Of a stretch of DNA of 64,000 nucleotides, positions 6,244 to 45,439 are shown in pieces. The stretch covers positions 103,376 through 167,375 of the forward strand of contig JAJZBD010000002.1 of assembly GCA_021799085.1 (NCBI GenBank). Direction: 5' to 3'. How positions within the stretch are numbered: position 1 is the stretch's first letter; the number at the start of each line of letters is the position of its first letter. This DNA is from Nanobdellota archaeon (lineage in GTDB: Archaea; Nanobdellota; Nanobdellia; Parvarchaeales; Parvarchaeaceae). The notes under the pieces are model-generated. The model saw only the letters and a list, made by a program, of their open reading frames with translations, ran no database searches and was not told the DNA's origin. A program made the translations under genes and the position numbers.

Positions 6244-6723
6244 ATGAAACTAAATGACATTTTAAAAAATGAAAAAGGACCAAAAAGCATTGGAAACAGC
6301 GGTTATTACGGATTGTATAACACATTTGAAAAACTGAAAAACAGCGGAATAAAGGAAAACCAGCTGGAAAAATACGCTAGTTACATGGTCAAACACATAG
6401 AAGGCTACACTCCAAGAGAGTTGATTTACTTTGTTGGCACTAAAATAGAAGAAGTAACTTCAGACGAAGAAAAGAAGCTTTTAAGCATATATAACAAGGC
6501 GGCATGGAACAACATTGCAAAAAAATACCGGATGGAAAAATTCTTTGAATCCGGAAAAGAAGGCTATCTCTCAAAGGTAAAGGATTACTTGCTTGATAAA
6601 TACGATAAACTGTCAAATGGTTTATATACAGCTATAGACAAATACGCATCTAAACTAAAAGGAAATGATGACTACAGTGAAAGAAACAATGGATTAAAAA
6701 TGACATACAGTGAAAAGAATTAA
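6244..6723 (+). CDS. Hypothetical soluble protein (lineage-specific)
   Basis: Open frame; GGTGA SD-like site before ATG 6244; TATA-like TTTAAATA upstream. Confidence 0.6.
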   Translation: MKLNDILKNEKGPKSIGNSGYYGLYNTFEKLKNSGIKENQLEKYASYMVKHIEGYTPRELIYFVGTKIEEVTSDEEKKLLSIYNKAAWNNIAKKYRMEKFFESGKEGYLSKVKDYLLDKYDKLSNGLYTAIDKYASKLKGNDDYSERNNGLKMTYSEKN

Positions 6724-6914
6724 CTGTGCCTGCGCATTGCAAAAAAGAAGGAAAAGAATACAACTACCTCTATTACTATTATAAAAGACATAGAAAGCAA
6801 CGATGGGTTGTTTTGGAACCTATTAGGGGCAAGAAGGAAGATTATTATGAATGCTGTTACAAGTGAAGCAATTCCTGCAAAGAAAGCATAAAATATATCC
6901 TCCCTCCCTATCAT
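6720..6914 (-). CDS. Small 2-TM membrane protein
   Basis: Two hydrophobic stretches; ATGA overlap with the upstream helicase stop. Confidence 0.55.
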   Translation of the reverse strand: MIGREDIFYAFFAGIASLVTAFIIIFLLAPNRFQNNPSLLSMSFIIVIEVVVFFSFFFAMRRHS

Positions 6915-9631
6915 ACTGCTTTAGAACGTTCGTATTCTTCCTTTAACTTCTTGAAAATCTCATCGTTAAGGCTGTCAGAATAATAGTACTTTTCAGTTGC
7001 CTTTTCAATCAATTTCTCGGGATTTTCCTTGTATTCCAATAGTTGAAGAATGTGCTTCTTGACAGTATCTATCTGCATGTCTTTTACTTTCTGCGTGTCC
7101 AATTCATATTCAAACTTCCCCGTGTTTATCTTTCCAGTTAAGTTTATGTATGCTATTGCAGTGTCTATATCTTTTTCATTGATTTTCTTCTCTATCGCAA
7201 AAAGCCTACGGTAAAGGGCAAGCTGCCTTCTATGCTTTGATCCTTGTTCTTCTGATTTGTCCGTTTTGAAGTCTATTATCAGGAACCTATTCTTTACCTT
7301 GTTGAGGAACACGGCATCAAGCTTTGCAGATACCTTTAAATCGATTTTTATGTCCGGAAAAACTACTTCAAGCGGCATTTCAATCGTTTTTTCGGCGTCT
7401 ATTTCTTCTGCATTGTATTTCCTTTTTATCTCTTCCGTAATACTTATTATGTTCTGAAGGATTTTTTTCTGAGTTTCGTCCAATTCCTCTTCTTTTAACG
7501 TGTGTTTGAAGTAATCCTCGGCTATTTTATGTGCCTTTAACCCGAATTTTGTGCTTTCTGTTACTTCACTTATTCCCAACACCTTTGTTTTTATGAAGTT
7601 CAATGGATCTGACATCGCATCCAGTAATGAAAAAGATATGCCTTTAAGCTGACTGAAATAACTGTTTATCCTCTTTACAAGCCATTTATCACTCTCTTCA
7701 AGCAAGGCCTTTGCTGCATCATATTCCTTGTTGACAAAAAGAGAATATGCTTCGGCGTATTTTTTCTTGAAAGGGGCTGGCTCGTCTTCCATTTCTGCAA
7801 TGCTTTTTTCAATAAAGCCCTCAATGTAGTAATCCTCAGCAAGTGCCGGAGGGGTTACAACAAAAAGGTTTTCCTTTGCCCTTGTAAAGGCAACAAAATC
7901 TACCCTTATGCTTTCCTCTGCCAACTCTTCCTTAACATCTATTTCCTTTGTCTGCTTGATTATGGAATTAGTTACTAGATCAATGAAGCTTGTTTTGTTG
8001 CTCTGTTTCTTAGGGACGTAGATAACATTGTCGAATTCCAAGCCCTTTGCCTTGTGAACTGTTGTAAGCACCAGGTTTTCCTGCTTGTCATTTGATTCAT
8101 AACTGTCTTCTGCAGTGTAAAGGTACACCAACATATCTGAAAGATTTGGTAGCTCATTGCTGTCCATGTACTGATTTATGTTTTCAAGCGTTGCCGCTGC
8201 GCTTATGTAATAGTCATTGTCCAAGGCTACCGATATTGGCAGTATGGTTTCATTGAAAAGCTTGTTTATGTTGAATATGTTAAGTTCTGCAGCGGCTTTT
8301 CTATCAAAAAAAGGCTTTGCAAGCCTCTTTACTTCATTCATGCCTATCTCTTTTTTCCTATATTTCTCTTCGATTTCAAACGCAGTCTTTAGAGAAACGC
8401 CTGAAAATGGGGTGAACAAAGCCTTTAAGATATCCTTTTCATCAGCATTGAATATGCCTTTCAAATAATCAACTATGGAATTCTTTGCTCTTGTTGAGAC
8501 AGAAGCGCTTGCAGTCGTTGCATATTTTACGTTCTTAGCGTCCAAAATACGGGAAATGCTTATTATTTGGTCATTAGTTCTCGTTATTATTGCTGCGTTC
8601 TTACCCTGAGAGACAAGGTCCATGGCAAGCTTTACGGCTATTTCGTCCGTGCTGTTTCCTATCAGCTGTTTTACGCTGCCGCCCTGTCCTTTATTGCTTT
8701 TAAAGTTTGACAATTCATCTTCATAGCTTTTGTCCTTCGTTTTACTGAGAAAATACTGCTTTGAATACTCAAGAATTTCACTGTAACTTCTGTAGTTAAG
8801 GCCCTTTGTCAGCTGCTCCAAATTGCTTAGTTTCTGGAATTCAATGAAGTTTTTCAGGCTGCCTCCTTGAAAACCGAAGATGGACTGCTTTCTGTCCCCG
8901 ACAAGAAACAGGTAATCTCCTAAAAGTCTGGCTATCTCTGCTTCTACATCGTTTAGATCCTGTAATTCGTCAACAAGGACATACTTGTAATGCTTTTTCA
9001 ATGGATCATACTCTAGTAAAAACCTCTTCAAAAGATCATTGTAATCAATGTTTGTTTCTCCTTTCTCTCTTTCATAATCCTTGAAAGCAGTTACGAAATA
9101 ATCAAGAAAAGCTAGGATTTCCTCTACAGTTACGCTGTTCATGTTTTCTAAAAATGACTTGTTTATCAGCTCTTCCTTTGTAATTTTTACGTTTATTTCA
9201 TTGGGTGTTATCCCAAAGCTTTTTATGTACCTTATTGCGTTCTCTACCTTTGGAACCAATTCCTGTATTACGTAATCCCTGTCATAATTGAAAGCATTGT
9301 TGTTTTCAAAGCTCTTGAATATTGAAAACCTTATGAAGTTATTGCTAACAAGCTCGTATTCCTTTCCCTGCTCTGAAAAATATGAATTGCAGAAACTGTG
9401 GAAGGTAGATATTGTTATGCCGTTTATCCTTGAAACCTCTAAATTGTTTTCCTTTAGTTTTTGGCTGATTTTTTCAAACATCTCATCTACTGCCTTGTTA
9501 GTAAAAGTCAAGCAAAGTATCTCTTTTTCGCTTACTCCATTTTTTATAAGCTCTATTACCCTGTCGGCTAATGAGGTTGTTTTACCAGTGCCAGGATTGG
9601 CTTTTATCAGTATGTTTTTACTTAAGTCCAT
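6911..9631 (-). CDS. UvrD/AddA-like SF1 helicase fused to C-terminal PD-(D/E)xK nuclease
   Basis: ANPGTGKT, LTFTNKA, VDELQD, VGDRKQSIFGFQG, TVHKAKGLEF, VAFTRAK; nuclease KLDAVF..IIDFKT..RQLALY. Confidence 0.9.
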   Translation of the reverse strand: MDLSKNILIKANPGTGKTTSLADRVIELIKNGVSEKEILCLTFTNKAVDEMFEKISQKLKENNLEVSRINGITISTFHSFCNSYFSEQGKEYELVSNNFIRFSIFKSFENNNAFNYDRDYVIQELVPKVENAIRYIKSFGITPNEINVKITKEELINKSFLENMNSVTVEEILAFLDYFVTAFKDYEREKGETNIDYNDLLKRFLLEYDPLKKHYKYVLVDELQDLNDVEAEIARLLGDYLFLVGDRKQSIFGFQGGSLKNFIEFQKLSNLEQLTKGLNYRSYSEILEYSKQYFLSKTKDKSYEDELSNFKSNKGQGGSVKQLIGNSTDEIAVKLAMDLVSQGKNAAIITRTNDQIISISRILDAKNVKYATTASASVSTRAKNSIVDYLKGIFNADEKDILKALFTPFSGVSLKTAFEIEEKYRKKEIGMNEVKRLAKPFFDRKAAAELNIFNINKLFNETILPISVALDNDYYISAAATLENINQYMDSNELPNLSDMLVYLYTAEDSYESNDKQENLVLTTVHKAKGLEFDNVIYVPKKQSNKTSFIDLVTNSIIKQTKEIDVKEELAEESIRVDFVAFTRAKENLFVVTPPALAEDYYIEGFIEKSIAEMEDEPAPFKKKYAEAYSLFVNKEYDAAKALLEESDKWLVKRINSYFSQLKGISFSLLDAMSDPLNFIKTKVLGISEVTESTKFGLKAHKIAEDYFKHTLKEEELDETQKKILQNIISITEEIKRKYNAEEIDAEKTIEMPLEVVFPDIKIDLKVSAKLDAVFLNKVKNRFLIIDFKTDKSEEQGSKHRRQLALYRRLFAIEKKINEKDIDTAIAYINLTGKINTGKFEYELDTQKVKDMQIDTVKKHILQLLEYKENPEKLIEKATEKYYYSDSLNDEIFKKLKEEYERSKAV

Positions 9632-9694
9632 TCTAATAATTGTACACCTTATTATAAAAATTTTTAAAATAGTCGGATTCTTTTTACAGAAAAA

Positions 9695-9725
9695 TTTATA
9701 AATTAGTTAGTACATAATAATTATT
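9695..9725 (+). promoter_or_regulatory. Putative hsp20 promoter with palindrome over the predicted start site
   Basis: A-rich BRE then TTTATA at 9695-9700; perfect palindrome AATAATTATT at 9716-9725. Confidence 0.4.
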
Positions 9726-9756
9726 GTAGTCTATAAAATCTAAGGAGGTGGTTTGT

Positions 9757-9819
9757 ATGGCTTCCGTAAAAGATTTTATAACGAGAATTTCAGTTTCCTT
9801 TAAGAATTTTAACACGTAG
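9757..9819 (+). CDS. 20-aa small ORF MASVKDFITRISVSFKNFNT upstream of hsp20
   Basis: Strong SD AAGGAGGTG at 9742-9750; amphipathic periodicity; followed by GGCCG-GTTA-CGGCC hairpin. Confidence 0.5.
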   Translation: MASVKDFITRISVSFKNFNT

Positions 9820-9880
9820 CATATTGGCCGGTTACGGCCGCCTTAAATTTTTAATTAAATAAGACAGGGAGGTGGTGCAT

Positions 9881-10294
9881 ATGAGAATAAAAGACTTGCA
9901 ACCTATAGAACCAATTGACTTAAACCCTTTCCAGCAGCTTGACAGGTTCATTTCAGGCTTTGGGTTTAACTTCAATTACCCGAGGGTCGACATATTAGAT
10001 GAAAACAACAGGGTTAAAGTAATTGCAGACCTGCCAGGTGTGGGCAAAGAAGACATAAAGCTGAAGATAGAAGAGGACAGGCTCATAATAAGGGCAAATA
10101 CGCAAAAAGAGGTAGAAGAAAAGAAGGATAACTATTACAGAGTGGAAAGAAACTCCGCAGGTTATTACAGAGAGATTGCTTTGCCTGCGCCTGTGCAAAA
10201 GGAAGGAAGTAAGGCAAGCTTCAAGAACGGGGTATTAACTGTGGAGCTGCTGAAGAAGAAAGGGGCAGAAGACAATGACATAGATATAGAGTGA
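9881..10294 (+). CDS. hsp20: Small heat-shock protein (Hsp20/alpha-crystallin)
   Basis: PRVDI, ADLPGVGKEDI, ERNS.GYYREI.LP, ASFKNGVL, C-terminal IDI; SD GGGAGGTG. Confidence 0.92.
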   Translation: MRIKDLQPIEPIDLNPFQQLDRFISGFGFNFNYPRVDILDENNRVKVIADLPGVGKEDIKLKIEEDRLIIRANTQKEVEEKKDNYYRVERNSAGYYREIALPAPVQKEGSKASFKNGVLTVELLKKKGAEDNDIDIE

Positions 10295-10363
10295 TTTTTG
10301 TTTTAATTTTTCTTTTCTTTTTTTGGATAAAAGTTTATAATTAAAAAAATGCTATCCTTAAAG

Positions 10364-10948
10364 ATGGAAAGGAAAGTTTATACTGAAATCAAGGAAATAG
10401 TAAATCCAGAACATACTGCACTTATAGTGTGGGATGTACAGAAAATGCTGGTGAACAACATATACAACAAGGAAGAATTTCTTAAAAACATTAATGAACT
10501 GATAGAAAGCGCAAGAACTAAAGGGATGCCAATATTCTTTACAAGGATTACGCCATTGCCGAAGGAATTTGAATCTCCTGCTAGAAAGTACTCTTCAAGC
10601 AAAATGAAGTTCAACCTTTCGCAACTACCTAAAGAAATGTTTGACTTAGCTATTGAACCTAAAAGCAATGAAATAGTCATAAACAAAAACACTGCAAGCA
10701 TATTCATAGGCACAAATTTCGAGCTTATGTGTAGAAATGCAGGTATTGAAACATTGATAATCGCAGGAATAGCAACTGAAATAGGGGTTGAATCTACGGC
10801 AAGAGATGCAGCAAACCGAGGCTTTTATGTAGTTGTAGATTCAAATGCCTCTTCTTCAAGTGACAAAGAAGCTCATGAAAGATCCCTTGAGAACATGAAA
10901 AAGCTTTTTGATGTTCTATCTACTGAGGATATAATAAAGGCGCTTTGA
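10364..10948 (+). CDS. Isochorismatase/cysteine hydrolase family (YecD-like)
   Basis: TALIVWDVQ, INKNTASIF.GT, GIATEIGVESTARDA. Confidence 0.85.
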   Translation: MERKVYTEIKEIVNPEHTALIVWDVQKMLVNNIYNKEEFLKNINELIESARTKGMPIFFTRITPLPKEFESPARKYSSSKMKFNLSQLPKEMFDLAIEPKSNEIVINKNTASIFIGTNFELMCRNAGIETLIIAGIATEIGVESTARDAANRGFYVVVDSNASSSSDKEAHERSLENMKKLFDVLSTEDIIKAL

Positions 10949-11196
10949 TGGCTTTAAAAAAAGACAGAGATAGGATAAGAAAAAAGATAGAGAGAAATTA
11001 CAAGGTTTTAGGTTGGATAAACGATTTTATGATAGGGTTGGAGTTCTTAATAGGCAGCATAGAATTCCTACCGGGGCACTTGAACACAATAGGAGTTTAT
11101 CTCTTCATCTTGGGCAGCTTCCAGATATTATTAGTCCCAACGATAAGGATATCAAGGGACATACACTTGAAACTTAGACTAAAAAACCATAAATAG
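10948..11196 (+). CDS. YrhK-like small membrane protein
   Basis: NDF.IG..FLIGSI.F...GVYLFILGS.Q.L..P.IR pattern. Confidence 0.7.
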   Translation: MALKKDRDRIRKKIERNYKVLGWINDFMIGLEFLIGSIEFLPGHLNTIGVYLFILGSFQILLVPTIRISRDIHLKLRLKNHK

Positions 11197-11216
11197 AATC
11201 AACAACTTAAACAAAT

Positions 11217-12110
11217 ATGGAAACAAAGGAATTCAATAAGACAAAAAGCAAACTTTCTATTATCGGAGTTGGCACTTGGCAGCTTAGCAGCAACAGAGAA
11301 GAGAACGTGAAAGCAATAAAATATGCAATAGACAACGGAGTAAACTTCATAGATACCGCAGAGATGTATAATACCGAGGACATTGTCGGAGAGGCAATTA
11401 AAGGCTATGAAAGAGATAAGCTCTTCATCGCAAGCAAGGTGTGGCCCACGCATTTTAAATATGAAGATGTAATAAAGGCATGCGAAGCCAGCCTAAAGAA
11501 GATAGGAACAGATTATTTAGACTTATACCAATTGCATTGGCCTAACAAATCGGTTTCAATAAAAGAGACAATGCAAGCGATGGAAAAGCTAGTAGATGAA
11601 GGAAAGATAAAGAACATAGGAATAAGCAACTTTTCGCTTGATGAGATGAAGGAAGCACAGGCCGTTATGTCAAAGCATGAGATAGCATCTAATCAAGTAG
11701 AATACAGCATAGTTACAAGAGACATAGAAAAAACGGGAGTGTTCGATTACTGCAAAGAAAATCACATTGCGGTAATAGCTTATAGTCCATTATCTCACGG
11801 AAAGATCTTTGATAACAAAGAACTGCTTGCCGATATTAGTAAGATATCAAGTAAATACGGAAAGACTCCTGCGCAGGTGGCATTAAGCTGGCTAGTTCAC
11901 AGAGACAATACATTCCCGATACCAAAAGCAAGTAATCCAGCTCACATGAAAGAAGACCTTGAAGCGGCTAAAATAAAGCTTAATAAAGAAGACCTAGATT
12001 TTCTTTCAAGTTTGGAAGGAAAATACTACACTGAGCCGATAGCAAAACAGCATAAAAAGAATGAAGACAAGATAAACAGCTATAATTTCAAGGAAGAGAA
12101 GATAAACTAA
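11217..12110 (+). CDS. Aldo/keto reductase
   Basis: GVGTW, DTAEMY, SKVWP, YLDLYQLHWP, IGISNF, AYSPL, PIPKAS. Confidence 0.93.
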   Translation: METKEFNKTKSKLSIIGVGTWQLSSNREENVKAIKYAIDNGVNFIDTAEMYNTEDIVGEAIKGYERDKLFIASKVWPTHFKYEDVIKACEASLKKIGTDYLDLYQLHWPNKSVSIKETMQAMEKLVDEGKIKNIGISNFSLDEMKEAQAVMSKHEIASNQVEYSIVTRDIEKTGVFDYCKENHIAVIAYSPLSHGKIFDNKELLADISKISSKYGKTPAQVALSWLVHRDNTFPIPKASNPAHMKEDLEAAKIKLNKEDLDFLSSLEGKYYTEPIAKQHKKNEDKINSYNFKEEKIN

Positions 12111-12142
12111 ATGCATTAAAGCAGAGAAAATCAATAATTTAT

Positions 12143-12520
12143 ATGGCATGCAATACTTTAGACCTTTTGAATGTGCTTGGAAAGAAGTGGGACGCAACAG
12201 TATTAGAGGAAATAACCAAAAATGATGGCATAAACTTCGACAAGCTGCTTTCATTGAATCCTAAGATATACCCTAAAACGCTTAATAAAGCGTTAAATGA
12301 TTTAGTGAAAAGAGGGCTCATAACCAAGAAGGTATCATATAACAATAACATGAAAAGGAGTGAATACAGCATGACTGAAACTGGCAAATCACTAGTTTCT
12401 GCATTTGAAACATTTAAAAAAGTCAATTGCAATGGTTCAGAAAGCGTTAAGAACTGCGGAGAATGCCAAAATGGACCAAACGGTAATAACCAAGAAGTTA
12501 GCAATCCTATAAAAATATAA
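12143..12520 (+). CDS. HxlR-family winged-helix regulator with N-terminal Cys and C-terminal CxxC
   Basis: C...LNVLGKKW...L, PKTL...L..L...GLI, EYSMTE.G. Confidence 0.8.
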   Translation: MACNTLDLLNVLGKKWDATVLEEITKNDGINFDKLLSLNPKIYPKTLNKALNDLVKRGLITKKVSYNNNMKRSEYSMTETGKSLVSAFETFKKVNCNGSESVKNCGECQNGPNGNNQEVSNPIKI

Positions 12521-12603
12521 AATACCTTTTTAAAATAAGGCAGTAAAGCTGCATTTTTTTGCAGTTGAACTATTTATAGGGATAATTAGTTATTTGATAA
12601 GGT

Positions 12604-14037: not shown

Positions 14038-14092
14038 AGCCGTAACCAAATGGATAATAAAGGTTTATAAACAATAAAATATTACATTAATT

Positions 14093-14734: not shown

Positions 14735-14799
14735 TTGGTTAACTTTTAGTTTCTAAGGAAGCAAAAACTATTAATATTATTTACTTTCTGATAGAGAAA

Positions 14800-15675
14800 A
14801 TGAAAATAGAAATGATCCTTGGGGCAATGAGCAATATTGAAACCACCCATAATGGAAACCCTTACGAAGTAATAGCGAATATTTACCGTGCTAAAGACAG
14901 AGAAATAGATATACTGATAGGGCCGGAATGGAGCCTTACATCCGCTTCAGGAGTATATGTTCAGAAATTTATCAGAAACAACAAGGCAAAGGATGCAATT
15001 AATATGCTGTTCAATGCTCCGGATTACTGCGAATATGCACCTAGGGATGCAAAGAAAATACTTGAAGAAAAAATAAATGATGAATCACTGTTTAAAGAGG
15101 TTCCGAGAATACCTTACTCGAAAAGAGAATACGAAAAGCTGTTAAAAGGTCTTAAGATGGCAAGCAGGGGTTCAGATATGCTTATTTTTCCAGGAACTGC
15201 CATGTTTTATGATGAAAATAAGGCGCTGTATAACGTAATGCCAGTGATTAGAAACGGCGAAGTGATAAAAAGCGTTTACAAGTTCAATGATGGCCTCGGT
15301 TCAAAATTCAATTTAGAAGGAGCATTAAAGTTATATCCCTCTGAAACAAACAATGATGAATATTGCGAAGGGAAATACTCATTATCTTATGGGGAAGACC
15401 CAATAGTAAACTTTGAAGGCATAAACACTTCGGTTGAGATATGTGCCGATGCGGGGATACTAAAAAAATATGGCATAGATAATTTAGATCTGCAGGTGCT
15501 TTCTTCATGTGGTAATTCATCTACGGATAGCGTTATAAACAATAGTGGATACATTGCGGCCGTGGATGGATTTAAAGGTGTAGAAATAAATGTGTCCGGT
15601 AAATATGCACCGAAGTTAAGACCTATCGAAAAATCAAATGATCTACACTTATTTAATTTGCAGTTCGATCTCTAA
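14800..15675 (+). CDS. Divergent carbon-nitrogen hydrolase with insertion
   Basis: IGPEWSL, PGTA, YKFNDG, VEICAD, NLDLQVLSS; paralog of 1082..1879. Confidence 0.6.
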   Translation: MKIEMILGAMSNIETTHNGNPYEVIANIYRAKDREIDILIGPEWSLTSASGVYVQKFIRNNKAKDAINMLFNAPDYCEYAPRDAKKILEEKINDESLFKEVPRIPYSKREYEKLLKGLKMASRGSDMLIFPGTAMFYDENKALYNVMPVIRNGEVIKSVYKFNDGLGSKFNLEGALKLYPSETNNDEYCEGKYSLSYGEDPIVNFEGINTSVEICADAGILKKYGIDNLDLQVLSSCGNSSTDSVINNSGYIAAVDGFKGVEINVSGKYAPKLRPIEKSNDLHLFNLQFDL

Positions 15676-16232
15676 ACATTTGTTTTGGCGTCTTTCTTTC
15701 TATGCAAGTATTCTCTGCCCCAATAATATAAAAATGGGGATACACAGATTATTGTAAGCGGTATAAAAGACTGGGCATAGCTCATATTTGCTATTATGTT
15801 GTTATAGTTGTTCATTGAAAGATAATTATGTAGTGAAACTAGGGATTCGGATCCGCCCATACCAAGATATATACTTCCAAGCATTTGCTTGTCTTTCAAG
15901 CCAACTTTTTTATGTATCTTGGAAGAGAAGATATACATAGAAACGTTCGCTATTATATAGGAACTTATAGCAGAGGGAATTATTCCTATGTAGTTGAACA
16001 GCTTTGCCATTATAGGATTCGCTTCCTGGCCCCCTTGGTATTCCAAGCCAAAATAAGTAAGTATTCTGTCGGAAAACATCGCTGCGCTTTCATAAAGAAA
16101 CTTAAATTTAACTGCCAGGTTATCCTTATAGAATTTTTTCAAACCGGAAAAGGCCTTACTAAGGTAATATTTGAGGTTTTTATTCGCATAAACCTCTTTG
16201 TTTTCATCGTCGATTATGGAATCTAAGCCCAT
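15672..16232 (-). CDS. Membrane protein, DUF5658-like
   Basis: D..LTY.GL....EANP motif, several hydrophobic segments. Confidence 0.55.
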   Translation of the reverse strand: MGLDSIIDDENKEVYANKNLKYYLSKAFSGLKKFYKDNLAVKFKFLYESAAMFSDRILTYFGLEYQGGQEANPIMAKLFNYIGIIPSAISSYIIANVSMYIFSSKIHKKVGLKDKQMLGSIYLGMGGSESLVSLHNYLSMNNYNNIIANMSYAQSFIPLTIICVSPFLYYWGREYLHRKKDAKTNV

Positions 16233-16247
16233 TATACCTTTAAAAAA

Positions 16248-17456: not shown

Positions 17457-17516
17457 TCATTTATTATCACAGCATACCGTATATATTCTTTTACCAGTAA
17501 AACATATTAGTTTTGT

Positions 17517-18584: not shown

Positions 18585-18603
18585 TATCGCTCTTACGATA
18601 TTA
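18582..18603. promoter_or_regulatory. Inverted repeat TAATATCG-N6-CGATATTA just upstream of the FMN reductase BRE/TATA
   Basis: Perfect 8-bp arms seen in sequence; operator or terminator role is inferred. Confidence 0.35.
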
Positions 18604-30183: not shown

Positions 30184-30970
30184 ATGGAAAACAAAGGAAA
30201 GGAAAAGCAGAAATCGACAAAAATTGGCAGTTTGAATGACGTGCTGTCACAAAACAGTGATTTTGTTCATATCAGAAGCTAAAAATGGCTTTTGTATAAG
30301 AGATTACAGAGAAGATGACTTTGCTGGAATTTACAAAGTATATAAATCAGCATTCTCTGAGGAACCCTGGAATGAGTACAAAAAATGCAGCTTATGCAAG
30401 GTTAATTATGGAATAAAAGAAAGTAATGATCCTGCAGAGAACTGCAAAAAATGTAGTAAGCCACTGAAATTAGAGGATTACTGGACTGAAAAGGACGTAA
30501 GTGACGACATAAGCTACGCAAAATCCAAGGAATGGAATTCCGTACTTGTTGCGGATTCGGGTGGGGAAATACTTGGGTTTACTTGGGCTTATAACATCAG
30601 CATAGAAAAAGACATGAATTTTCTTAAAGGAGCACAGAATATGGACTGCTCAAAAAAGACAATTTATGTCGATGAAGTTGCTACTGCTGCTAACTCCCGC
30701 GGCAAAGGAGTAGCAACCGAACTGGAAAAGAAACTGTTTTCCAAGGCCGAAAACGCTGGCTTTGAATATGTAATTCTAAGAACTGACGAAAGAAACATTG
30801 CTGCAATTAATCTCTACAGAAAGCTTGGCTTTGAAAGATTACTTTACGGCGTATCTGAAACCAACGAAAGCAAATACGCATATGACCCCGAATTTAATTC
30901 TAGGGTTTATTTAGTAAAGAAGCTTCTGCCAGGTGAAAACATTGGAGGAAACAACGAATGCAAGTCGTAG
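30184..30970 (+). pseudogene. GNAT acetyltransferase with CxxC...CxxC insert, split by a +1 frameshift near 30251-30264
   Basis: SD AGGAGGT + ATG 30184 opens 32 codons (stop 30282); GNAT body (YVDEVA...RGKGVA, N.AA..LY.KLGF) is in the +1 frame. Confidence 0.65.
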
Positions 30971-31021: not shown

Positions 31022-31024
31022 GAT

Positions 31025-33870: not shown

Positions 33871-33909
33871 TCTGAAAATATTTAAATTTGGCTAATTACA
33901 AGTAAAAGA

Positions 33910-34680: not shown

Positions 34681-34781
34681 CCCTTGCCAGAAAAAAGGCA
34701 GCCTTAAATTTTCTTTGGTTTAATAGGTTACAATTAACTGCCCCATTAATTTAAATACCTGCAGTTATCTTATAATACCAA

Positions 34782-36463: not shown

Positions 36464-36520
36464 CTTCTTGAAATTTAAACTAAATTATTAAACTTTGTAT
36501 GATGATTAATCTTATTGTAT

Positions 36521-37528: not shown

Positions 37529-37652
37529 GTATTTAATATTAGGTTAACGGACTTTTGTGCGGTTATCATAAAAATATGTATATTAGTAACTTCTTTATAA
37601 TAGTAAACTATTTATATATGTAAACTTCTATAATAGTTATTAAAAGGAGGTT

Positions 37653-38233
37653 AACATGGAAAGCAAACTGGATTTGATTTTATTAGAAGAGCTAACTAGA
37701 AAGTACGGTGCTGTAGGCCCTTTTACTGGACATGTTACAGGAGCTGAGAAAAGAAGCGATTCCGAGGTTGATTCCTACCGTCTCGACATAGATAATGGGG
37801 ACAGTAGACTGGAAATAAACATGCTTGAAGTTGGCAAAAATACGGCTGGCGAATCAAAGGTTATATACTTAAGTTTGAATACGAGGAGGAAACCGTATGA
37901 TGATTATAAGAGAATTCTAGATTACAGACATGCAGTCGATCGGTTTAAAAAGCTGACATTATTCACCGGAGGCGGACACAGAAAGAGAGATTATCCCAAA
38001 GATGCCCCCAAATTTTATCCTGCCATCTCTTGCTGGTGGACATGCTACGGAAAGGAATCCGATTCGGCTTTCGTTGAACTGAAATACACTAACAGCGTAA
38101 AGATTGCTTTAGACTCCCTCAAAAAGTTTGCCTACGACAAGGAAGGCTTCGAAAAATTAATCCAATAAGAGGCATAAGCGAAACAACATGGAAAGCAAAC
38201 TGGATTTGATTTTATTAGAAGAGCTAACTAGAA
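37653..38233 (+). repeat. Identical 49-nt direct repeat (37653-37701 and 38185-38233) covering the starts of the two tandem genes
   Basis: AACATGGAAAGCAAACTGGATTTGATTTTATTAGAAGAGCTAACTAGAA present twice. Confidence 0.95.
37656..38168 (+). CDS. Lineage-specific hypothetical protein, tandem copy A
   Basis: SD AAGGAGG; homologous along its length to 38188..38625. Confidence 0.75.
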   Translation: MESKLDLILLEELTRKYGAVGPFTGHVTGAEKRSDSEVDSYRLDIDNGDSRLEINMLEVGKNTAGESKVIYLSLNTRRKPYDDYKRILDYRHAVDRFKKLTLFTGGGHRKRDYPKDAPKFYPAISCWWTCYGKESDSAFVELKYTNSVKIALDSLKKFAYDKEGFEKLIQ

Positions 38234-38625
38234 GGTATGGGAAGACGGAGAACGATTCTTTTCTTGGAGAAAAAAGGAATTTCAGCACTAATTCCTACTT
38301 TCTTGACATAAACGAAGGAAGAAGCGGAATTGAAGTGCGTATGCACGAATACCCTGCTGGCAACTCAAAGGTTATAAACTTGGAGTTATATGCAAAGAGC
38401 GGTCCATTTGGTGACTACAGGAGGATTTTAAATTACACACGTGGACTAAGCGATGAGAAAAACCTTACTTTATTTACCGGAAACAAGTACAAAGAGAATA
38501 GAAATTACAGCAAAGATGACTCAACCTTCATTGAAATGAAATACACCAAGAACGTAAAGACTGCCATAAATATCCTTAAAAATTTTGCCTATAACAAAGA
38601 AGCATTCGAAAAATTGGCTCAATAA
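38188..38625 (+). CDS. Lineage-specific hypothetical protein, tandem copy B
   Basis: Shares MESKLDLILLEELTR, SKVI, RIL.Y, LTLFTG, KYT..VK.A, FAY.KE.FEKL.Q with copy A. Confidence 0.75.
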   Translation: MESKLDLILLEELTRRYGKTENDSFLGEKRNFSTNSYFLDINEGRSGIEVRMHEYPAGNSKVINLELYAKSGPFGDYRRILNYTRGLSDEKNLTLFTGNKYKENRNYSKDDSTFIEMKYTKNVKTAINILKNFAYNKEAFEKLAQ

Positions 38626-38752
38626 AGAGGCACAAGGCCATATCCCCAACAATTTTGGCTTTGCGGATAGTTTTCTTTGATTTTATGTGTTATGCAGATA
38701 TTACTCACCGTATGGAATTAAACTTTATATAATGTCTTTTCCAATAGTTTCA

Positions 38753-39679
38753 ATGACAAAAGAAAATCTGGAAATGCTTATAAATGATTTTTTGACAATC
38801 GGGGGCGAAAAGCCAAGTTACAGTCTTTGTTACGCTACATACCATGAAATTAACGATTATTACTATAAAATATACCGGGAAATAAAAACCAAATTCACAA
38901 CAAAAGACATAGAAGAATTTGTCAGAAATCCAGAGATATATGTAAAACTAAATGATAGTTCAAAACTAGGTTTGTTCATATCTGCCGTAATAAACAAAAA
39001 CATAAAGAGAGGCGAAAGAGTTTTTATAGATTCACCTATCCCAATTAACCTACTTTTCTATAATTTAAAGGGTGTAGAAGCCCATGTAAATAAAGCTGGT
39101 GACAAATTAGGTTACTGCGCAGAGAGCAGCAAAATATATGCCAATGGAGTGGGAGATTATGCAGGCTCTGATATGGAAAACTCTGAGCTGCATGTAGATG
39201 AAGCTGGAATCTCTCTCGGAGAGTACGCAAGAAACAGCAAGATATACGCAAATAGGGCCAAAGAGGATGCAGGGCTTTACATGGAAAACTCTGAGCTACA
39301 CATAACTATCGCAGATGATTACCTTGGATCTGGCGCGGAGAACAGCAAGATATATGCCGGCAACGCAGGAGCTTGGGCAGGTTATTACATGAAAAATTCG
39401 GAATTAAAGGTAGTAAATGCGCTGGATTACCTTGGCTATGGGGCAAGAAACAGCAAAATATGCGCTGAGAAGGTAAGAATCCAGTACAATAAGGACAGTT
39501 ACAACCAAGTAACGGGCTTAAAGCTATACATCGGTGCATTGGAAGGAAAATTAAAGAACAGGCTAAACTTGTTGACAGACCTCACAGAAAAAGGAAATGA
39601 AGTTTATCTAGCAATGGAAACTTATAACAAACACAGGATACTATACCAAATGGCAGGAGCAAAGAAATGGGATATATAA
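38753..39679 (+). CDS. Beta-helix repeat protein (FwdC/GXGXG-like 18-aa repeats)
   Basis: About 3.5 units of 36 aa (A...LG..A.NSKIYA......AG..MENSEL.V); start chosen from TATA spacing. Confidence 0.7.
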   Translation: MTKENLEMLINDFLTIGGEKPSYSLCYATYHEINDYYYKIYREIKTKFTTKDIEEFVRNPEIYVKLNDSSKLGLFISAVINKNIKRGERVFIDSPIPINLLFYNLKGVEAHVNKAGDKLGYCAESSKIYANGVGDYAGSDMENSELHVDEAGISLGEYARNSKIYANRAKEDAGLYMENSELHITIADDYLGSGAENSKIYAGNAGAWAGYYMKNSELKVVNALDYLGYGARNSKICAEKVRIQYNKDSYNQVTGLKLYIGALEGKLKNRLNLLTDLTEKGNEVYLAMETYNKHRILYQMAGAKKWDI

Positions 39680-39741
39680 TAAAAATTAAAACAATCGGGA
39701 TAAATACCAGCAATAAATACTAGTAGGTACAGTTATAATAC

Positions 39742-40290
39742 ATGAAGGAGATAGAAACCAAGATAATAGACATAAACGAAGGAGAAGTAAGAAAAAGGCT
39801 AGCAGAGATCGGTGCGAAGAAGATTGGAAACTTATTTTACAGAAGATACGTATTCTTTCTGGCTGATAAAAAGGGAATAGACGAGTTTGTGAGGATAAGG
39901 ACGGACGGCAAAAAAACGACTATTACCTATAAGTATAGGGAAGGAAGCGGTCTAAGAAACACAGAAGAAATAGAAACTGATGTAGGAGATTTCAAAAAAG
40001 CAACTGAAATATTCAAAAAAGCCCTTAAGATAAAGCCAATATACCAGGAAAACAAAGTTGAAAAATGGCTTTACAAGGGGGTAGAAATAGATATAGCATA
40101 CTGGCCCTTGATAAAACCTATCCTAGAAATAGAAGGTAAAACTGTAAAAGATGTTGTCAAAACTAAGGAAAAACTGAACATAAAGGGGATGGATATAGGG
40201 AACAAAAATCTTGATTTCACGTTTAGATACTATAATCAAGCCGGAAAAGACAACGGAAATTTGTACTTTAAAGATAAAAAGAACTCGTAA
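39742..40290 (+). CDS. CYTH-domain protein (class IV adenylate cyclase/triphosphatase family)
   Basis: EIETK, VRIR, TYK, EEIE, LEIEG. Confidence 0.85.
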   Translation: MKEIETKIIDINEGEVRKRLAEIGAKKIGNLFYRRYVFFLADKKGIDEFVRIRTDGKKTTITYKYREGSGLRNTEEIETDVGDFKKATEIFKKALKIKPIYQENKVEKWLYKGVEIDIAYWPLIKPILEIEGKTVKDVVKTKEKLNIKGMDIGNKNLDFTFRYYNQAGKDNGNLYFKDKKNS

Positions 40291-40343
40291 AAAGCGCAAA
40301 GGAGAGAAGAAAAGTTTATCATATATTGAGGCTTTAAATTTAC

Positions 40344-41195
40344 ATGAACAAAATCGTTTTTATTGCGGTATTGCTTGTTTTGGCAATTGCAGTTATTTCT
40401 ATATTCTACATTAATAATCTAATTAAGCCAAGCGGCAATGCAGCACAGTTTTATTCGGTAACTAATTCAGCCGAGCTTCTTAATGCCACTGAACATTATG
40501 TCAACCTTACAAATCACTTTACGATAAACTACAGCGGAACAGCGGACATAATGTTTTCCAAGGATTCAATAAACGTAACATTGGCTGTGCCAATAAAGAT
40601 GTCCTTTCAAAAATCCAGTGGATTGGGCCTTTTCAAGTTATATGCTAACCTGACAAAAGCTTATAACTTCTTTTCAGCTTTCACAGGCTCTCCAAAAGAA
40701 CAGAATTACATCTCTGCGGTGTTTCTATACAACGGTAGCGGAATAATCGCATGTTCAAACATTACAGGAGAAACATATCGAAACTGCACATTCAACAGCT
40801 CAAAAGCGGTAATCAGCACAGTAAAAGATGATTTAGAGGATGTTGCGCTTAAATCGTATGCCAATCATCTTTTCGATACAAGTGTTCTTCTAAACCTTGG
40901 CAATTCTTCTTTTCCAGTAAAATTCAAGGGAACGGAAAGCTATAGCGGTGGCACATGCTCTATTTTTGACATGAATTTCAGCTCCTCAACCGCAGAAGGG
41001 AGCGGAAAAATATGTTTTTCTGACAGTGTTGGCATGCCTGTTTCACTTCAATTTGCTATTCAAGGATACATACAAAGCGGTTCAAACGCTGCAATAACTG
41101 GCAGTTACACAGTAATTTTTACAGCAAACTCAAATCCAATCTCTTATTCAAATGCTTCAATAGACGCAGATAACGCTGCAAAATACCTCCAGTAA
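40344..41195 (+). CDS. Membrane-anchored surface protein (Cys-motif family, copy 2)
   Basis: N-terminal TM; YSGGTC...ICFSDSVGMP. Confidence 0.7.
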   Translation: MNKIVFIAVLLVLAIAVISIFYINNLIKPSGNAAQFYSVTNSAELLNATEHYVNLTNHFTINYSGTADIMFSKDSINVTLAVPIKMSFQKSSGLGLFKLYANLTKAYNFFSAFTGSPKEQNYISAVFLYNGSGIIACSNITGETYRNCTFNSSKAVISTVKDDLEDVALKSYANHLFDTSVLLNLGNSSFPVKFKGTESYSGGTCSIFDMNFSSSTAEGSGKICFSDSVGMPVSLQFAIQGYIQSGSNAAITGSYTVIFTANSNPISYSNASIDADNAAKYLQ

Positions 41196-41224
41196 ATAAT
41201 TTAAACCCTAAAAAAGAACAATCC

Positions 41225-41734
41225 ATGGAAATAAGCGGCAATCCCGAATGCAAGAATTTGTTGAACAATTGTTTAAAGGTTTTCAGGCCTTTTAGGGGCA
41301 CTTACATAAACATAGATTATGCACCATTACCAAAGGGAATAGCCGGTAGGGTAAACGCTGAAATAGAGACGGTAAGAAAAAGGAAAAACCCTGGTTTTTT
41401 CAGAAAAGAGGTTGTAAGGATAAACCGTAGGATAAAGAACAATGAGTTTTATATAAGGATAAACGAGAACCTGAAAAAGATAACTGATGAACAACTAAGA
41501 AGAGAGGTAGTTACGAGCATTATAGTGCATGAACTCCTGCATATAGAAAGGAAGGATTTATTGGAGCACAGCAAGAATTACAGGAAAAGGAAGCACAAAA
41601 AGATACATTCGTCTTTGGAAAAAGAAGCACTTGAAAGATTTAACATGCTAAGGGAGCAGGAAGGCTTAAAGCCATTAGAAAAGGAGAATTACATTGAAAA
41701 GGAGATAGTAAGAAGAGTAAACGATGCTGAATAG
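41225..41734 (+). CDS. Basic HExxH (SprT/zincin-like) protein
   Basis: IRIN...IIVHELLH...KIH. Confidence 0.6.
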   Translation: MEISGNPECKNLLNNCLKVFRPFRGTYINIDYAPLPKGIAGRVNAEIETVRKRKNPGFFRKEVVRINRRIKNNEFYIRINENLKKITDEQLRREVVTSIIVHELLHIERKDLLEHSKNYRKRKHKKIHSSLEKEALERFNMLREQEGLKPLEKENYIEKEIVRRVNDAE

Positions 41735-41747
41735 TAGTGTTAAGCGC

Positions 41748-42329
41748 TTATCTATCGTTGCAGTAACCTATTACTTTCCTTATTTTACTGTTAAAATTGT
41801 TTGTAGTGTAGCTTTGTATGTTGTAGCAATTTTTAAGCAGATCCTTCGCTTCCTTTTCCATTTCAGAGAAGTGCACATCGTTGTAAAGCCTGTCTATATA
41901 GGAATTTACAATGTACTTCATTCCTGCTTTATAGTCCTGCGGGTGATGCGCATTCCCGAATTTATGCGTCAATTCATGAAGCAATACCTCGGTAATCTTA
42001 TCTTTTGTAGAATCGAAAAGCTGCCCATCGATAACGTTTTCAAAGTATTCTCTATCCAAAGCATTGCTTTTTCTGTTTGAATCGCTTTCAAGAAAACTAA
42101 AAAGATCTTTATTTTCTTTTTTTATCTCTTTGTAGCATGACTCCACTATACTGCCCAGAAATAGCTCTATCTTATCACAATTAGAATTATACCTGCCAAG
42201 TAAATTCTTATCTGAAGCATCCTGGCTAGAAAGCAGAAAATCTATTGTTGTTTTATTGCTTAATTTTTTGCCAGTATGTGAATATTTACTCTTGTTTTCA
42301 GTTCCTATTATTCTCCCAGGATTTCCCAT
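41748..42329 (-). CDS. HExxH zincin-like hypothetical protein
   Basis: LGRY...IELF...VLLHELTH. Confidence 0.6.
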   Translation of the reverse strand: MGNPGRIIGTENKSKYSHTGKKLSNKTTIDFLLSSQDASDKNLLGRYNSNCDKIELFLGSIVESCYKEIKKENKDLFSFLESDSNRKSNALDREYFENVIDGQLFDSTKDKITEVLLHELTHKFGNAHHPQDYKAGMKYIVNSYIDRLYNDVHFSEMEKEAKDLLKNCYNIQSYTTNNFNSKIRKVIGYCNDR

Positions 42330-42419
42330 AATTACTATATTTTAGTGATTATAATTGCTATAAATAGCTTTTTTTACCCAATTATAAGCTTAAAACCTAA
42401 GAACTTAAAATAATAAACA

Positions 42420-42521
42420 AAACCGCATATTGATAAGAGTTTCTTTAAAGGAAACAATGAGGTTTACTTAGGCAAAGAAAGCTACGATGAATTCATTAAA
42501 AATTATCCTGGATATAAATAA
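42420..42521 (+). pseudogene. Start-less remnant resembling the C-terminus of the beta-helix family
   Basis: Translates KPHIDKSFFKGNNEVYLGKESYDEF, compare EKGNEVYLAMETY in 38753..39679. Confidence 0.35.
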
Positions 42522-42591
42522 AAGGTAAAGATATTGAAAAATTAACTTAGAAACTTATCATACAACGTTTGGAATAAAACCGGTAAATCCT

Positions 42592-43305
42592 TTAAGAATT
42601 ATATCTTTTCAAGTATTCTTGATGCGCAACATGGATAGCATCGCTTAAAACCGACTTGAATTTGCTTATTATGCCGGGGTGGTAAGCTTTGGCTATTTTC
42701 CGGTAGTATTCATCATTTTTATCCATGTAATCCAAAAGGTTGGCCTTCTTTAAGTCTATTATGTCCTTGTCGCACCTTCCATTCATTAATCTATTTCTCC
42801 ATGCATTGTACTTTAGCCTGCCAAGGTTTATGGGGTCAACGAAATAGACTTTTTCACCATTGTATTCCCTGGAAAAAGCTTTTTTCTTAATGCTTTCAAA
42901 GCTTTGATCTTTGTCAAGCAGTCCTTCGCTTGAATAAAACTCTATTCTTATCTTCTTTTCCCCCAAATTTAAGTAGGAAACATGTATATCTGCATCAAAC
43001 AACGGCTTTGAACCTGCATCCTTAATATTGTTAAATCCCTTGCTGTACAGCAAATCCTTCTTTTCTTCCACATTTCCATTAACCACAACATCTATGTCTT
43101 TTGGCCTATGCAAAGGATAGTAATTCTGCAATGCTGCTCCGCCTATTAAGATTACATTGCCGCTGCCGAAAACCGAAGAGGCCATTAAATAGCTTTTGTT
43201 AATCTCCTCTTGACTTAGATACTCGCCCTCTTCATAATTTACCGGCTCTATCAAGTCATCATCTGCAAGCTTTGACAATATAAACTGCAGAGTCCTTTTT
43301 ATCAT
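42592..43305 (-). CDS. Pol-beta-superfamily nucleotidyltransferase-like protein
   Basis: LIGGAA...RPKDIDVVV, LK..A...R...KD..DL. Confidence 0.7.
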   Translation of the reverse strand: MIKRTLQFILSKLADDDLIEPVNYEEGEYLSQEEINKSYLMASSVFGSGNVILIGGAALQNYYPLHRPKDIDVVVNGNVEEKKDLLYSKGFNNIKDAGSKPLFDADIHVSYLNLGEKKIRIEFYSSEGLLDKDQSFESIKKKAFSREYNGEKVYFVDPINLGRLKYNAWRNRLMNGRCDKDIIDLKKANLLDYMDKNDEYYRKIAKAYHPGIISKFKSVLSDAIHVAHQEYLKRYNS

Positions 43306-43399
43306 AATTTAAGTAGAAGACAAGGATTATATAAATCTTTCTTTGCGTTTAACTTAGAAGTAAATAAAATTATTTAAATAGTTCTTATCTATAAATGGA

Positions 43400-44230
43400 A
43401 TGCTAAACGGTTTAGAAGAGGTTTTGAATAAAACCAGTGAAATAGAAGCCTACTTGATAGGAGGTGTAGCTATCAATTCATATATAGAAGGCAGCAGATA
43501 CAAAAGTATACGACCGCCTTCCCCCTCTAATGACATTGACTTTACAAGCCCTTACGTTAGCATAAGGGAGCTAGATAAGATAGCAGATAAATTCGATGGA
43601 AATATCTCTTTGCTAGTAAATGAATCAAAGATAAACTACACAATGTATGGTGTTATTGGCAGAATAGTCTATGATCCTGCCCCAGTATTTACATTGAATG
43701 AAAAGCTAAACAGCAGGGACATACAGATCTTTCCAAATTTTGTTGGTCCGATTAAAGTGGACAAAAATTACAAAAGCAATGGAGTGTTAAGGGTTGCAAA
43801 TCTCGACACATTGGTTGCAACGCAGCTCAATCCGATGGCCTTTGATGCAAACAGGCTAAGAAAAATAGATATAGCAGTCGCTGCCGAATGTGAAAGGACT
43901 GATGAACCTATAGAGCTTGCCTCTAAAGCTTATTCATCGGGCGCAAAAAGAGTATGTAAAGCTATTGACGATGTAGAGAAAGTGGCCAAACAAACATACG
44001 GCATATTAAAGTACGCAAAAATGGATGAATTTTTACTTGTAAATTCACAGATAAATGATAAAAGCTACTCGCATGACGGTTACATTGAGTTTATGAAAAA
44101 GACGGCAAATGAAGTTAAAAACCTGAAAATCAAAGAAAACAAAGTCCTTAGAAAATACTCCTCTGAAAAAGTAGGAAAAGCAGTAGAGCATGGATTAGAG
44201 CTTTTCTACGAAGAGATAAAAGGAATGTGA
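43400..44230 (+). CDS. Pol-beta-superfamily nucleotidyltransferase-like protein
   Basis: LIGGVA...R...NDIDF. Confidence 0.6.
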   Translation: MLNGLEEVLNKTSEIEAYLIGGVAINSYIEGSRYKSIRPPSPSNDIDFTSPYVSIRELDKIADKFDGNISLLVNESKINYTMYGVIGRIVYDPAPVFTLNEKLNSRDIQIFPNFVGPIKVDKNYKSNGVLRVANLDTLVATQLNPMAFDANRLRKIDIAVAAECERTDEPIELASKAYSSGAKRVCKAIDDVEKVAKQTYGILKYAKMDEFLLVNSQINDKSYSHDGYIEFMKKTANEVKNLKIKENKVLRKYSSEKVGKAVEHGLELFYEEIKGM

Positions 44231-44452
44231 TTTTTTAAGCTATCTAAAGATGAAAACGCCTGCAAAGATACTTTCACAGTTTTATGGAGCTAAGAAAACG
44301 CCATTAAACGCTTTTTATTAACGCCTCTGTTAATTTTTGTTTACATTAATACTGCTTAGTAAAAGACTATCTAAAATTATTTTACAATAATCAAAATTAC
44401 CTATTTTTTAGTAAAAAAAGTTTATATATTAGTTATATTCTCAAACTAAACC

Positions 44453-45439
44453 ATGGTAAATAAATCACTTAAAAAATCCAAGGGGGGAACGCTAGAGAGG
44501 CTATTATCTAGCCTACCAAAGAAAAACGAAGAGATTGGTGAAATCGAAAATTACAGTATAATTGTATATGGGGAAAGCCATATTAGCGAAAAAGACCAAC
44601 AAAGGGAAATAGAAATCATAAGGAAGTTTAAGCCTGATTATATTTTGGAGGAAGGGGGCAGCAGCATTATTTCGCTTAAAAATGAAGATTATTATGGCGT
44701 AACGATGAATTTAGAAAAGGATTTTTTAAATAAAATATCTGATAAAAACTTGCGTTCTAAGACTGAGAATGAACTTAATGAAATTTACAGTTCTATGAAG
44801 GCAAATCCGAGAAAAAATAAGTATATGGAGGACTTGACAACATTTAATGATGTAATGAAAAGATCGCTTGTGGGATTACCTGTCAACTATTTGGAAGAAG
44901 TAGAGAAAATTTTTCATGGGTATATTAATTCACAAAATAGGGTTGAGAATTTTAAACGCAACGATGTAATTTTCAATAATTTCCAGCGTGCTTTAACGAA
45001 TTTGGTGGCATATAAGAAGGATGTACTAGATTCAAAACAACCGAATAAGCTGATTCTTCATTTAACTGCTTACAACGCAAACAACAATGTAAAAGTTATA
45101 GAGATGGATTTGCCGGCATTAGAAATTGAAGGGTATTATTATAGAAAAAAGCCATATCAGAGAGATAATGACTTAAATAAGAAAAGAGAAGAAAGGATGG
45201 CGCGCAATATTGCTTCTTATGCAAATACGGTCAAAAACAGCGGAGAAAGGATATTTGTAAAAGTTGGAGATTATCATCTTAGGAAAGATAGCGCCATATC
45301 AAGGTATTTAGATGGATCAGAGTTGCCATATAAAATCTTTAGATCCATAGGAGATGACGCGTTATTTATTGATAAGATTAGATATTCAATAAGACTTCAT
45401 AGAAAGATCAGAGAAGATATGAAAAATCTGTATGGCTAA
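44453..45439 (+). CDS. EreA/ChaN/TIKI-fold protein (putative hydrolase/protease)
   Basis: YGESH, ILEEG, REERM..NI, VGDYHL order matches the His-Glu-Arg-His signature of that fold. Confidence 0.55.
   Translation: MVNKSLKKSKGGTLERLLSSLPKKNEEIGEIENYSIIVYGESHISEKDQQREIEIIRKFKPDYILEEGGSSIISLKNEDYYGVTMNLEKDFLNKISDKNLRSKTENELNEIYSSMKANPRKNKYMEDLTTFNDVMKRSLVGLPVNYLEEVEKIFHGYINSQNRVENFKRNDVIFNNFQRALTNLVAYKKDVLDSKQPNKLILHLTAYNANNNVKVIEMDLPALEIEGYYYRKKPYQRDNDLNKKREERMARNIASYANTVKNSGERIFVKVGDYHLRKDSAISRYLDGSELPYKIFRSIGDDALFIDKIRYSIRLHRKIREDMKNLYG

Follow-up and report, generated by a model that had tools for sequence, protein, structure and literature searches.

Short N-terminal targeting peptides and a possible address tag in Parvarchaeum

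Several described systems bear on the element treated here, a five-residue motif (in its strict form L[DE]x[ILV][ILV]) that recurs near the N-termini of unrelated proteins encoded in a 64,000-nucleotide stretch of a Parvarchaeum genome, C7:103376-167375 (the window), and elsewhere in that genome. The nearest are the encapsulation peptides of microcompartments (Pdu, Eut). These too are portable N-terminal amphipathic helices joined through a poorly conserved linker to unrelated enzymes, and several of them show a hydrophobic-acidic-x-hydrophobic-hydrophobic pattern. However, their helices are of some 18 residues, whereas the Parvarchaeum element is of about 5–8 with no hydrophobic enrichment at +7/+8, and they occur on a handful of cargo proteins per organism as against about 40. 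To our knowledge no microcompartment is known in archaea, and neither the microcompartment shell family PF00936 nor PF04454, the encapsulin shell with which a cargo-loading peptide would have to pair, has a match in the genome (93% complete).

The capsid targeting sequence (CTS) of phage T4 is similar in being a short N-terminal peptide common to dozens of unrelated small proteins and kept across relatives, but the carriers of the Parvarchaeum motif are scattered chromosomal cell genes and not virion genes. Peroxisomal targeting signal 2 (PTS2) has a short consensus close to the initiating Met, at no fixed spacing, on unrelated, folded proteins of cytoplasmic type, and one receptor, as is proposed below for Parvarchaeum. 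It is eukaryotic, however, with a different consensus and with a known organelle and receptor. Type III effector signals and the MIX (marker for type VI effectors) motif resemble it in N-terminal position, disordered context and fast-evolving, lineage-restricted cargo of many folds and cytoplasm-type composition; type III signals lack a consensus, which the Parvarchaeum motif has. We know of no injectisome-type machine in archaea (none was searched for in this genome). As a Leu-rich two-turn helix the motif recalls the LxxLL motifs that dock in a groove, and, in being terminal with an unstructured segment behind, the N-motifs recognized by ClpX. LxxLL motifs are nonetheless internal and of eukaryotic nuclear receptors, ClpX and ClpS are bacterial, and the Parvarchaeum motif has a near-fixed acidic residue at its second position.

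The motif was first noticed when the window was read from its letters only. That sequence-only reading described [LI][DENQ]x[ILV][ILV] near the start of orphan proteins and proposed a portable tag for delivery into a host, or a docking or degron motif. The observation of a shared N-terminal motif is confirmed, and is stronger than was claimed. No description of such a motif was found in the literature searched, including what a term search reached of a 2023 paper on Parvarchaeales genomics (PMC10134863). The source genome (G000) is of 912,732 bp in 14 contigs with ~36% GC, and the public records nearest to its PrkA-like protein carry the names Candidatus Parvarchaeum or Parvarchaeota, with ARMAN-4 at 63% identity.

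Positional enrichment and conservation

Genes were called with a purpose-written program (open reading frames (ORFs) scored by hexamers and chosen greedily), which gave 992 genes at 93% coding density. The first ATG was taken as start codon, or the longest start where there was no ATG. Counted at starts from residue 2 to 12, the strict pattern is present in 41 of 967 G000 proteins against 7.0 expected from its internal rate (Poisson P 1.5e-18). Shuffling residues 2–20 within each protein (n=1000) yields 8.2±2.9 with a maximum of 19, and the N-terminal excess therefore holds against both internal-position and shuffled controls. For the form LE.[IL][ILV] the excess is 25 to 2.4. The loose pattern, that of the sequence-only reading, has 56 starts within the first 10 residues, where position-specific column composition predicts 24.7, and 44 at residues 3–7, where 14.5 are predicted, while internally it is found 507 times against 520 by composition. 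Per five-residue bin the strict motif declines from 14, 20, 11 and 6 to ~3.5, reaching background by about residue 20. No C-terminal excess was found in G000. Reversed and permuted patterns, and L[KR]x.., were at only 0.9–1.7 times expectation at G000 N-termini. An unbiased pentamer scan in a reduced alphabet ranked hydrophobic-acid-x-hydrophobic-hydrophobic third in G000 (89 against 36, P 1e-13), after hydrophobic runs alone, and did not have it among the top 12 N-terminal patterns of the outgroup genomes G027 and G018.

The match list gives a sharper consensus: Met, 1–10 residues that are mostly K, S, R or E, then L-[ED]-x-[LI]-[LIV] followed by polar residues. The distance from the Met varies from 2 to about 15, and the second position is E or D in 48 of the 59 loose carriers (the set left after dropping matches with a hydrophobic stretch behind the motif). 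The K/S/T/G-rich stretch said to precede the motif is borne out in part: the preferences are for K at −3 (3.8-fold), for E and S at −2, and for K, R, G or T at −1. Codons for the first Leu vary (TTA 13, CTT 11, CTG 10, TTG 7, CTA 4), which places selection at the level of the protein. Upstream of carriers there is a TATA-like box ~25–30 nt before the ATG or a GGAGG-type Shine-Dalgarno (SD) sequence, and no 6-mer common to their upstream regions stands out (best P 0.002 among 59 tested).

The same counts were made in a distant congener, G017 (its second PrkA is 35% identical, its GC 41%; 720 kb were compared), and in outgroups, one genome from each of ten other families of the class, partially sampled to a pooled 976 proteins. 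G017 has its own carrier set, 23 proteins against 5.2 expected (shuffles 6.3±2.5; P 8e-9). As the two are kin and not independent, their statistics are two views of one lineage. The outgroups pooled have 10 against 9.5 and so no enrichment (G027 5 against 4.8; G018 3 against 2.8; G026 0 against 0.8; seven further genomes, with 4–32 kb sampled of each, 2 against 1.1). The enrichment is thus not general to N-termini or to small AT-rich genomes, and within the genomes tested the tag belongs to Parvarchaeum only.

That chance or a gene-calling artefact generated the set is refuted, and the idea merits next to no credence, although about 7–8 of the 41 members may be chance matches. The pattern is of low information and the starts are from a home-made caller, but none of the 1000 shuffles reaches the observed count, the P values in G000 and G017 are as given, and the same caller shows no enrichment in the outgroups. 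Moreover the TATA or SD elements are correctly spaced from the starts, and orthologues conserve the motif.

The conservation is best followed in two genes that lie outside the window, in a four-gene cluster (C7:53621-60378) conserved across Parvarchaeum. The cluster encodes a canonical PrkA (738 aa), a PrkA-like protein (607 aa; PrkA2), a putative YeaH-like protein (~359 aa) and SpoVR (526 aa), and the tag is only on the second PrkA and on SpoVR. The Leu is kept by 16 congener PrkA2 orthologues, down to 34% identity, mostly as G-L-[EQ]-x-[LFI]-[VIL], and is followed by E, Q or S in 14 of the 16. For SpoVR, K-S-L-E-K-L-L-V-D-G is present in every one of the 13 orthologues with a readable N-terminus and 70% identity or more, that of ARMAN-4 included. 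The SpoVR proteins of G017 and L207 begin exactly behind the tag, which is therefore a discrete add-on of 14 residues, and that of L206 has only a short, non-matching extension. (The SpoVR alignment reached Parvarchaeum-type records only and no distant homologues.) In the three families that were aligned, identity in the motif, the next 10 residues and the rest is 0.84/0.61/0.57, 0.95/0.68/0.83 and 0.86/0.32/0.63. Orthologues thus keep the motif while the linker diverges, as a genuine signal had been predicted to do.

Gain and loss are apparent from the comparison with G017. No homologue was detectable in its 720 kb for 27 of the 41 G000 carriers. Among 12 reciprocal-best carrier pairs the strict motif is kept in 5 and a looser form in 9, and where the G000 member lacks the motif it is present in 4 of 469 orthologue pairs. 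Conservation above that of the flanks, non-homologous carriers, and gain and loss are features of a portable short linear motif, and the tag shows all of them. The tag exists, is under protein-level selection, has been gained and lost, and is mainly on fast-evolving orphans. The claim of a real, portable, protein-level tag is accordingly upheld by scattered non-homologous carriers, varied codons and the presence or absence of the SpoVR tag.

These data bear also on an explanation without any common reader: Parvarchaeum proteins, especially young ones, could favour a short N-terminal capping helix through convergent biophysics, with benefit to folding, solubility, protection from exopeptidases or early translation. 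The core is indeed a short, generic amphipathic pattern, in several families (DCD, IMPDH, KaiC-like, hemerythrin) the motif belongs to the domain itself, and in the kinase-like model described below its helix is beside the first strands. Carriers also have TATA-proximal starts, taken as leaderless, somewhat more often (57% against 40%). On the other hand, the ten related genomes of similar size are unenriched (GC 38.5% and 42.6% in the two measured), residue order matters, the acidic position is nearly fixed and the offset from the Met is variable. Carriers have both TATA-type and SD-type starts, and their codons vary. Altogether a capping helix is a rather unlikely source of the motif.

Carriers and what may read the tag

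When the N-termini are removed, an all-against-all BLASTP of the 41 carriers retrieves one paralogous pair only, 37656/38188 in the window. Orphans are over-represented, as the window had suggested: at a cut-off of E <= 0.001, 34 of the 59 loose carriers (58%) have no Pfam family against 22 in a random sample of 100 non-carriers (Fisher P 1.2e-5). The difference is maintained within 60–250 aa, where 29 of 42 loose and 24 of 37 strict carriers are Pfam-less against 15 of 57 non-carriers. By estimate, roughly one in six Pfam-less G000 proteins is a carrier. Of the 25 carriers that do have a domain, about 19 have the motif on the N-terminal side of the Pfam envelope. Examples with the tag outside the domain are the second PrkA, SpoVR, a 726-aa metallophosphoesterase, DUF218, Toprim and SWIM proteins, a nucleoside deoxyribosyltransferase, AbiEii, NAPRTase and an arginase-family protein. 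Among G000 proteins starting ME[STNK], 11 of 75 have the tag, against 37 of 892 others. [In the reduced-alphabet scan, N-termini of the form M-[DE]-[STNQ]-[KR]-x-[STNQ] are 13-fold enriched in G017, 10 against 0.8.]

Composition is informative about location. G000 proteins whose only hydrophobic segment is N-terminal, the exported class, have 10.6% K+R+D+E, 32.4% S+T+N and 3.4 sequons per 100 aa, whereas soluble proteins have 28.5%, 17.4% and 0.6. Carriers, at 28.4%, 18.1% and 0.9, are of the cytoplasm type. (The two-class split in charge, S+T+N and sequons can be used to predict which proteins this acidophile exports.) The absence of Sec signal peptides noted in the window extends to the set: of 37 strict carriers without a transmembrane-like stretch just behind the motif, 33 have no hydrophobic segment at all. 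Hydrophobic residues make up 33% of the 15 positions behind the motif and 42% of the corresponding positions in other proteins, and carriers do not show there the hydrophobic core of at least 7–8 residues that Sec, Tat or class III signals have behind a basic N-region. Three strict carriers do have a downstream hydrophobic segment, and a DUF5658 protein is membrane-like by family and composition; in these four the tag would face the cytoplasm.

A non-classical export signal into the medium, a counterpart of Sec and Tat, is in consequence highly improbable. It would suit an N-terminal, lineage-specific element on many orphans, but not carriers with the composition of the cytoplasmic class, unlike the exported one, and no hydrophobic core behind the motif. 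As carriers are K/E-rich and sequon-poor like cytoplasmic proteins, secretion into the acid medium is unlikely, and thus the only form of host delivery that fits is direct transfer from cell to cell.

The explanation to which we lean, tentatively, is an address: a portable N-terminal tag, specific to the lineage, for which there would be a single cytoplasmic receptor. After the Met and 1–10 residues of polar or basic kind (preferably K, R, S or E), L-[ED]-x-[LI]-[LIV] would form an amphipathic helix of two turns with three aliphatic side chains on one face and the acidic residue beside them. A poorly conserved polar linker of about 10–15 residues would then lead to any of about 40 unrelated domains. 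A common receptor would bind the helix in a hydrophobic groove, in which a basic residue might pair with the Glu or Asp, and the tag would work only near a free N-terminus. Binding would recruit the tagged protein to one destination, either an apparatus for cell-cell contact or transfer or an internal protein assembly.

Of two structure predictions, the first is in keeping with this anatomy. In the AlphaFold2 model of the window's 6244 protein, residues 3–8 are a short helix, with a predicted local distance difference test (pLDDT) score <50 for residues 1–16, and a coil detaches it from the helical core at 20–94 (pLDDT 84–90); a fold search with this model gave no match at E <= 0.001. In the model of a second carrier family, that of C11:4291, the helix is at residues 6–9 with pLDDT about 65 and abuts the first strands. 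[This Parvarchaeum-restricted orphan family, C11:4291-4950 on the minus strand, has a small protein-kinase-like model (pLDDT 83) with weak matches to Bud32/PRPK and RIO1 at E about 5e-3 and TM-score about 0.4, and some orthologues end in a Gly-rich tail that closes with Tyr.]

Several points weigh against a dedicated reader. The five-residue core is of low information, with the 7–8 carriers in 41 expected by chance, and the gene starts are predictions of a simple program and not experimental. Carriers are not clustered, being spread over 11 contigs with 5 pairs within 3 genes against 4.7 in shuffles, and some are ordinary cytoplasmic enzymes. In about six (dCTP deaminase, IMPDH, KaiC-like, hemerythrin, RpoH, PadR) the motif is inside a conserved domain and is probably there by coincidence. 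Since the C11:4291 helix abuts its own strands at that pLDDT, it may pack on its own domain. Also, no receptor, translocon or compartment shell was found in G000. PilB/VirB11-type ATPases (three T2SSE matches) and ParA/MinD-type ATPases are encoded, and nothing ties them to the tag. Complex prediction for the canonical PrkA (738 aa, 7-row alignment) with SpoVR residues 1–60 (10-row) scored 0.17 and 0.00, in runs without controls, and counts neither for nor against a reader. A phyletic profile for the reader (kept in G017, unmatched in the incomplete outgroup DNA) was abandoned, as it returned 237 candidates with obvious housekeeping genes among them.

The destination can be taken further only with more doubt. 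The tag would, on a reading that we hold to be unlikely, be the sorting signal of an undescribed archaeal trafficking route, either for direct transfer into a partner cell, across the cell-cell contact, or for loading into a cytoplasmic tubular organelle. A figure legend in PMC6098224 mentions such a structure, imaged in ARMAN cells by cryo-tomography. Delivery to a host has against it that the tag is also on conserved, cytoplasmic-looking proteins, namely PrkA2, SpoVR and the metallophosphoesterase, DUF218, Toprim and SWIM proteins. If transfer into a partner cell were true, the roughly 40 carriers would be the first effector list of a DPANN archaeon. Experimental handles are few on how DPANN archaea deal with their many lineage-specific proteins, and on whether they pass any proteins to their hosts. 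The tag provides three: a defined group of about 40 proteins in each genome, a core of five residues open to mutation, and a bait peptide for the reader. That reader, whether translocon, scaffold or protease, would be new archaeal cell biology in one genus-level lineage.

The protease possibility is a distinct explanation, in which the tag is an N-terminal degron. Here the helix and the unstructured linker would be threaded by an AAA+ unfoldase or protease (PAN, Cdc48 with 20S, Lon or a PrkA-type enzyme), keeping regulators, toxin-like proteins and young orphans short-lived. Behind the tag, which is found strictly near the N-terminus, come 10–15 polar, poorly conserved residues, as unfoldases need. 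Carriers are of cytoplasm-type composition, and include an AbiEii-type toxin homologue as well as PrkA2 and SpoVR, whose genes are beside that for canonical PrkA; a proteasome alpha subunit is encoded in G000. Bacillus subtilis PrkA reportedly acts as an ATP-dependent protease. However, it is hard to explain why dozens of orphans would keep a degron under stronger purifying selection than their own domains. We know of no archaeal N-terminal degron of this form, which also counts against it, and a degron seems a doubtful identity for the tag.

Copies in the window and neighbouring genes

The 11 strings listed by the sequence-only reading are all present, but only 8 start at residues 3–6 of a supported start and 3 are further in. 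On the plus strand LNDIL (6250..6264) is residues 3–7 of a 159-aa orphan (ATG 6244-6723). MKL[NSQ][DE][IL]L is kept in 12 of its 12 aligned homologues, every one from Parvarchaeum. The loose form IEMIL (14806..14820, plus) is residues 3–7 of a 291-aa orphan without a Pfam family (14800-15675), and LDSII (16212..16226, minus) is residues 3–7 of the 186-aa DUF5658 protein (15672-16232), whose Pfam domain extends from residue 53 on and leaves the tag outside. LQFIL, also a loose form (43276..43290, minus), is residues 6–10 of a 237-aa protein (42592-43305). LEEVL (43412..43426, plus) is residues 5–9 of a 276-aa orphan (43400-44230), for which the sole homologue among 19 congeners, in G011 at 74% identity, keeps MLNNLEEVL. 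Window carriers are patchy in the genus, with homologues in 1, 1 and 5 of the 19 congeners.

Two of the three strings that are further in are in proteins of the usual kind. In the Tiki/ChaN-like protein 44453-45439, LERLL (44492..44506, plus) occupies residues 14–18, on the border of the enriched zone. IDFLL (42231..42245, minus) is residues 29–33 of the zincin-like protein 41748-42329, outside the zone; matches there are no commoner than background, and this one is probably due to chance. Of the folds that had been guessed, some hold: 44453 matches the Tiki/ChaN family and 30236 is a GNAT, while for the minus-strand protein starting at 42329 there are weak zincin hints only. [The match of 44453-45439 (plus strand, 328 aa) to the Tiki/ChaN haem-binding superfamily PF04187 has E 6.5e-7, which is above the cut-off, and covers only residues 245–286.]

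LEMLI (38768..38782, plus) is residues 6–10 of a repeat protein running from ATG 38753 to 39679. A TATA-like box at −31..−24 of this ATG shows that 38753, the start given by the sequence-only reading, is right and that chosen by the purpose-written caller wrong. The tag supports starts such as this one, a gain for annotation.

The two copies of LDLIL, both on the plus strand, are residues 5–9 of a 170-aa orphan (37668..37682 in 37656-38168) and of its 145-aa paralogue (38200..38214 in 38188-38625). It had been noted that the only nucleotide-identical block in this tandem pair is at the motif. This is so: a run of 49 nt, 3 nt upstream and the first 46 coding bases, is identical between 37653-37701 and 38185-38233, the next longest identical run being 12 nt and identity beyond the block 64%. 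A homologue of the 37656 protein in G004, at 38% identity, keeps METKLDLILLEELARKYG with other codons. A signal at the nucleotide level was considered for the pair and rejected, as the same peptide is there encoded by different codons, and for the same reason the 49-nt identity is ascribed to a local gene-conversion tract. Against a large protein collection the single match of the 37656 protein was itself.

The remaining string, LNDVL (30232-30246, plus), begins at residue 17 of a leader ORF of 32 codons (30184..30282, plus) that has the SD sequence AGGAGGT and overlaps the GNAT gene (30236-30970) in the +1 frame. The leader ORF, its SD and its VHIR[SK]-stop end are conserved in all four relatives compared (L185, L186, L187 and L188), and the DNA at its end is conserved as well. 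In the same four the GNAT frame is without an ATG, and in two of them there is a stop directly before 'FIS..'. The leader ORF is probably joined to GNAT by conserved programmed +1 ribosomal frameshifting at ..AGA-AGC-TAA-A..; it was the tag that exposed this probable frameshift.

Two observations concern other parts of the genome. True class III signals (KGQ..IDLVV followed by a transmembrane segment) match the loose pattern at residues 9–12 and were set aside; class III, pilin-type signal proteins with K-G-Q and a hydrophobic stretch are encoded on the minus strand at C5:67919-69153, C5:59749-60138 and C5:157842-161516. The MCM helicase gene at C12:51822-55052 (plus strand) has an intein with a LAGLIDADG domain.

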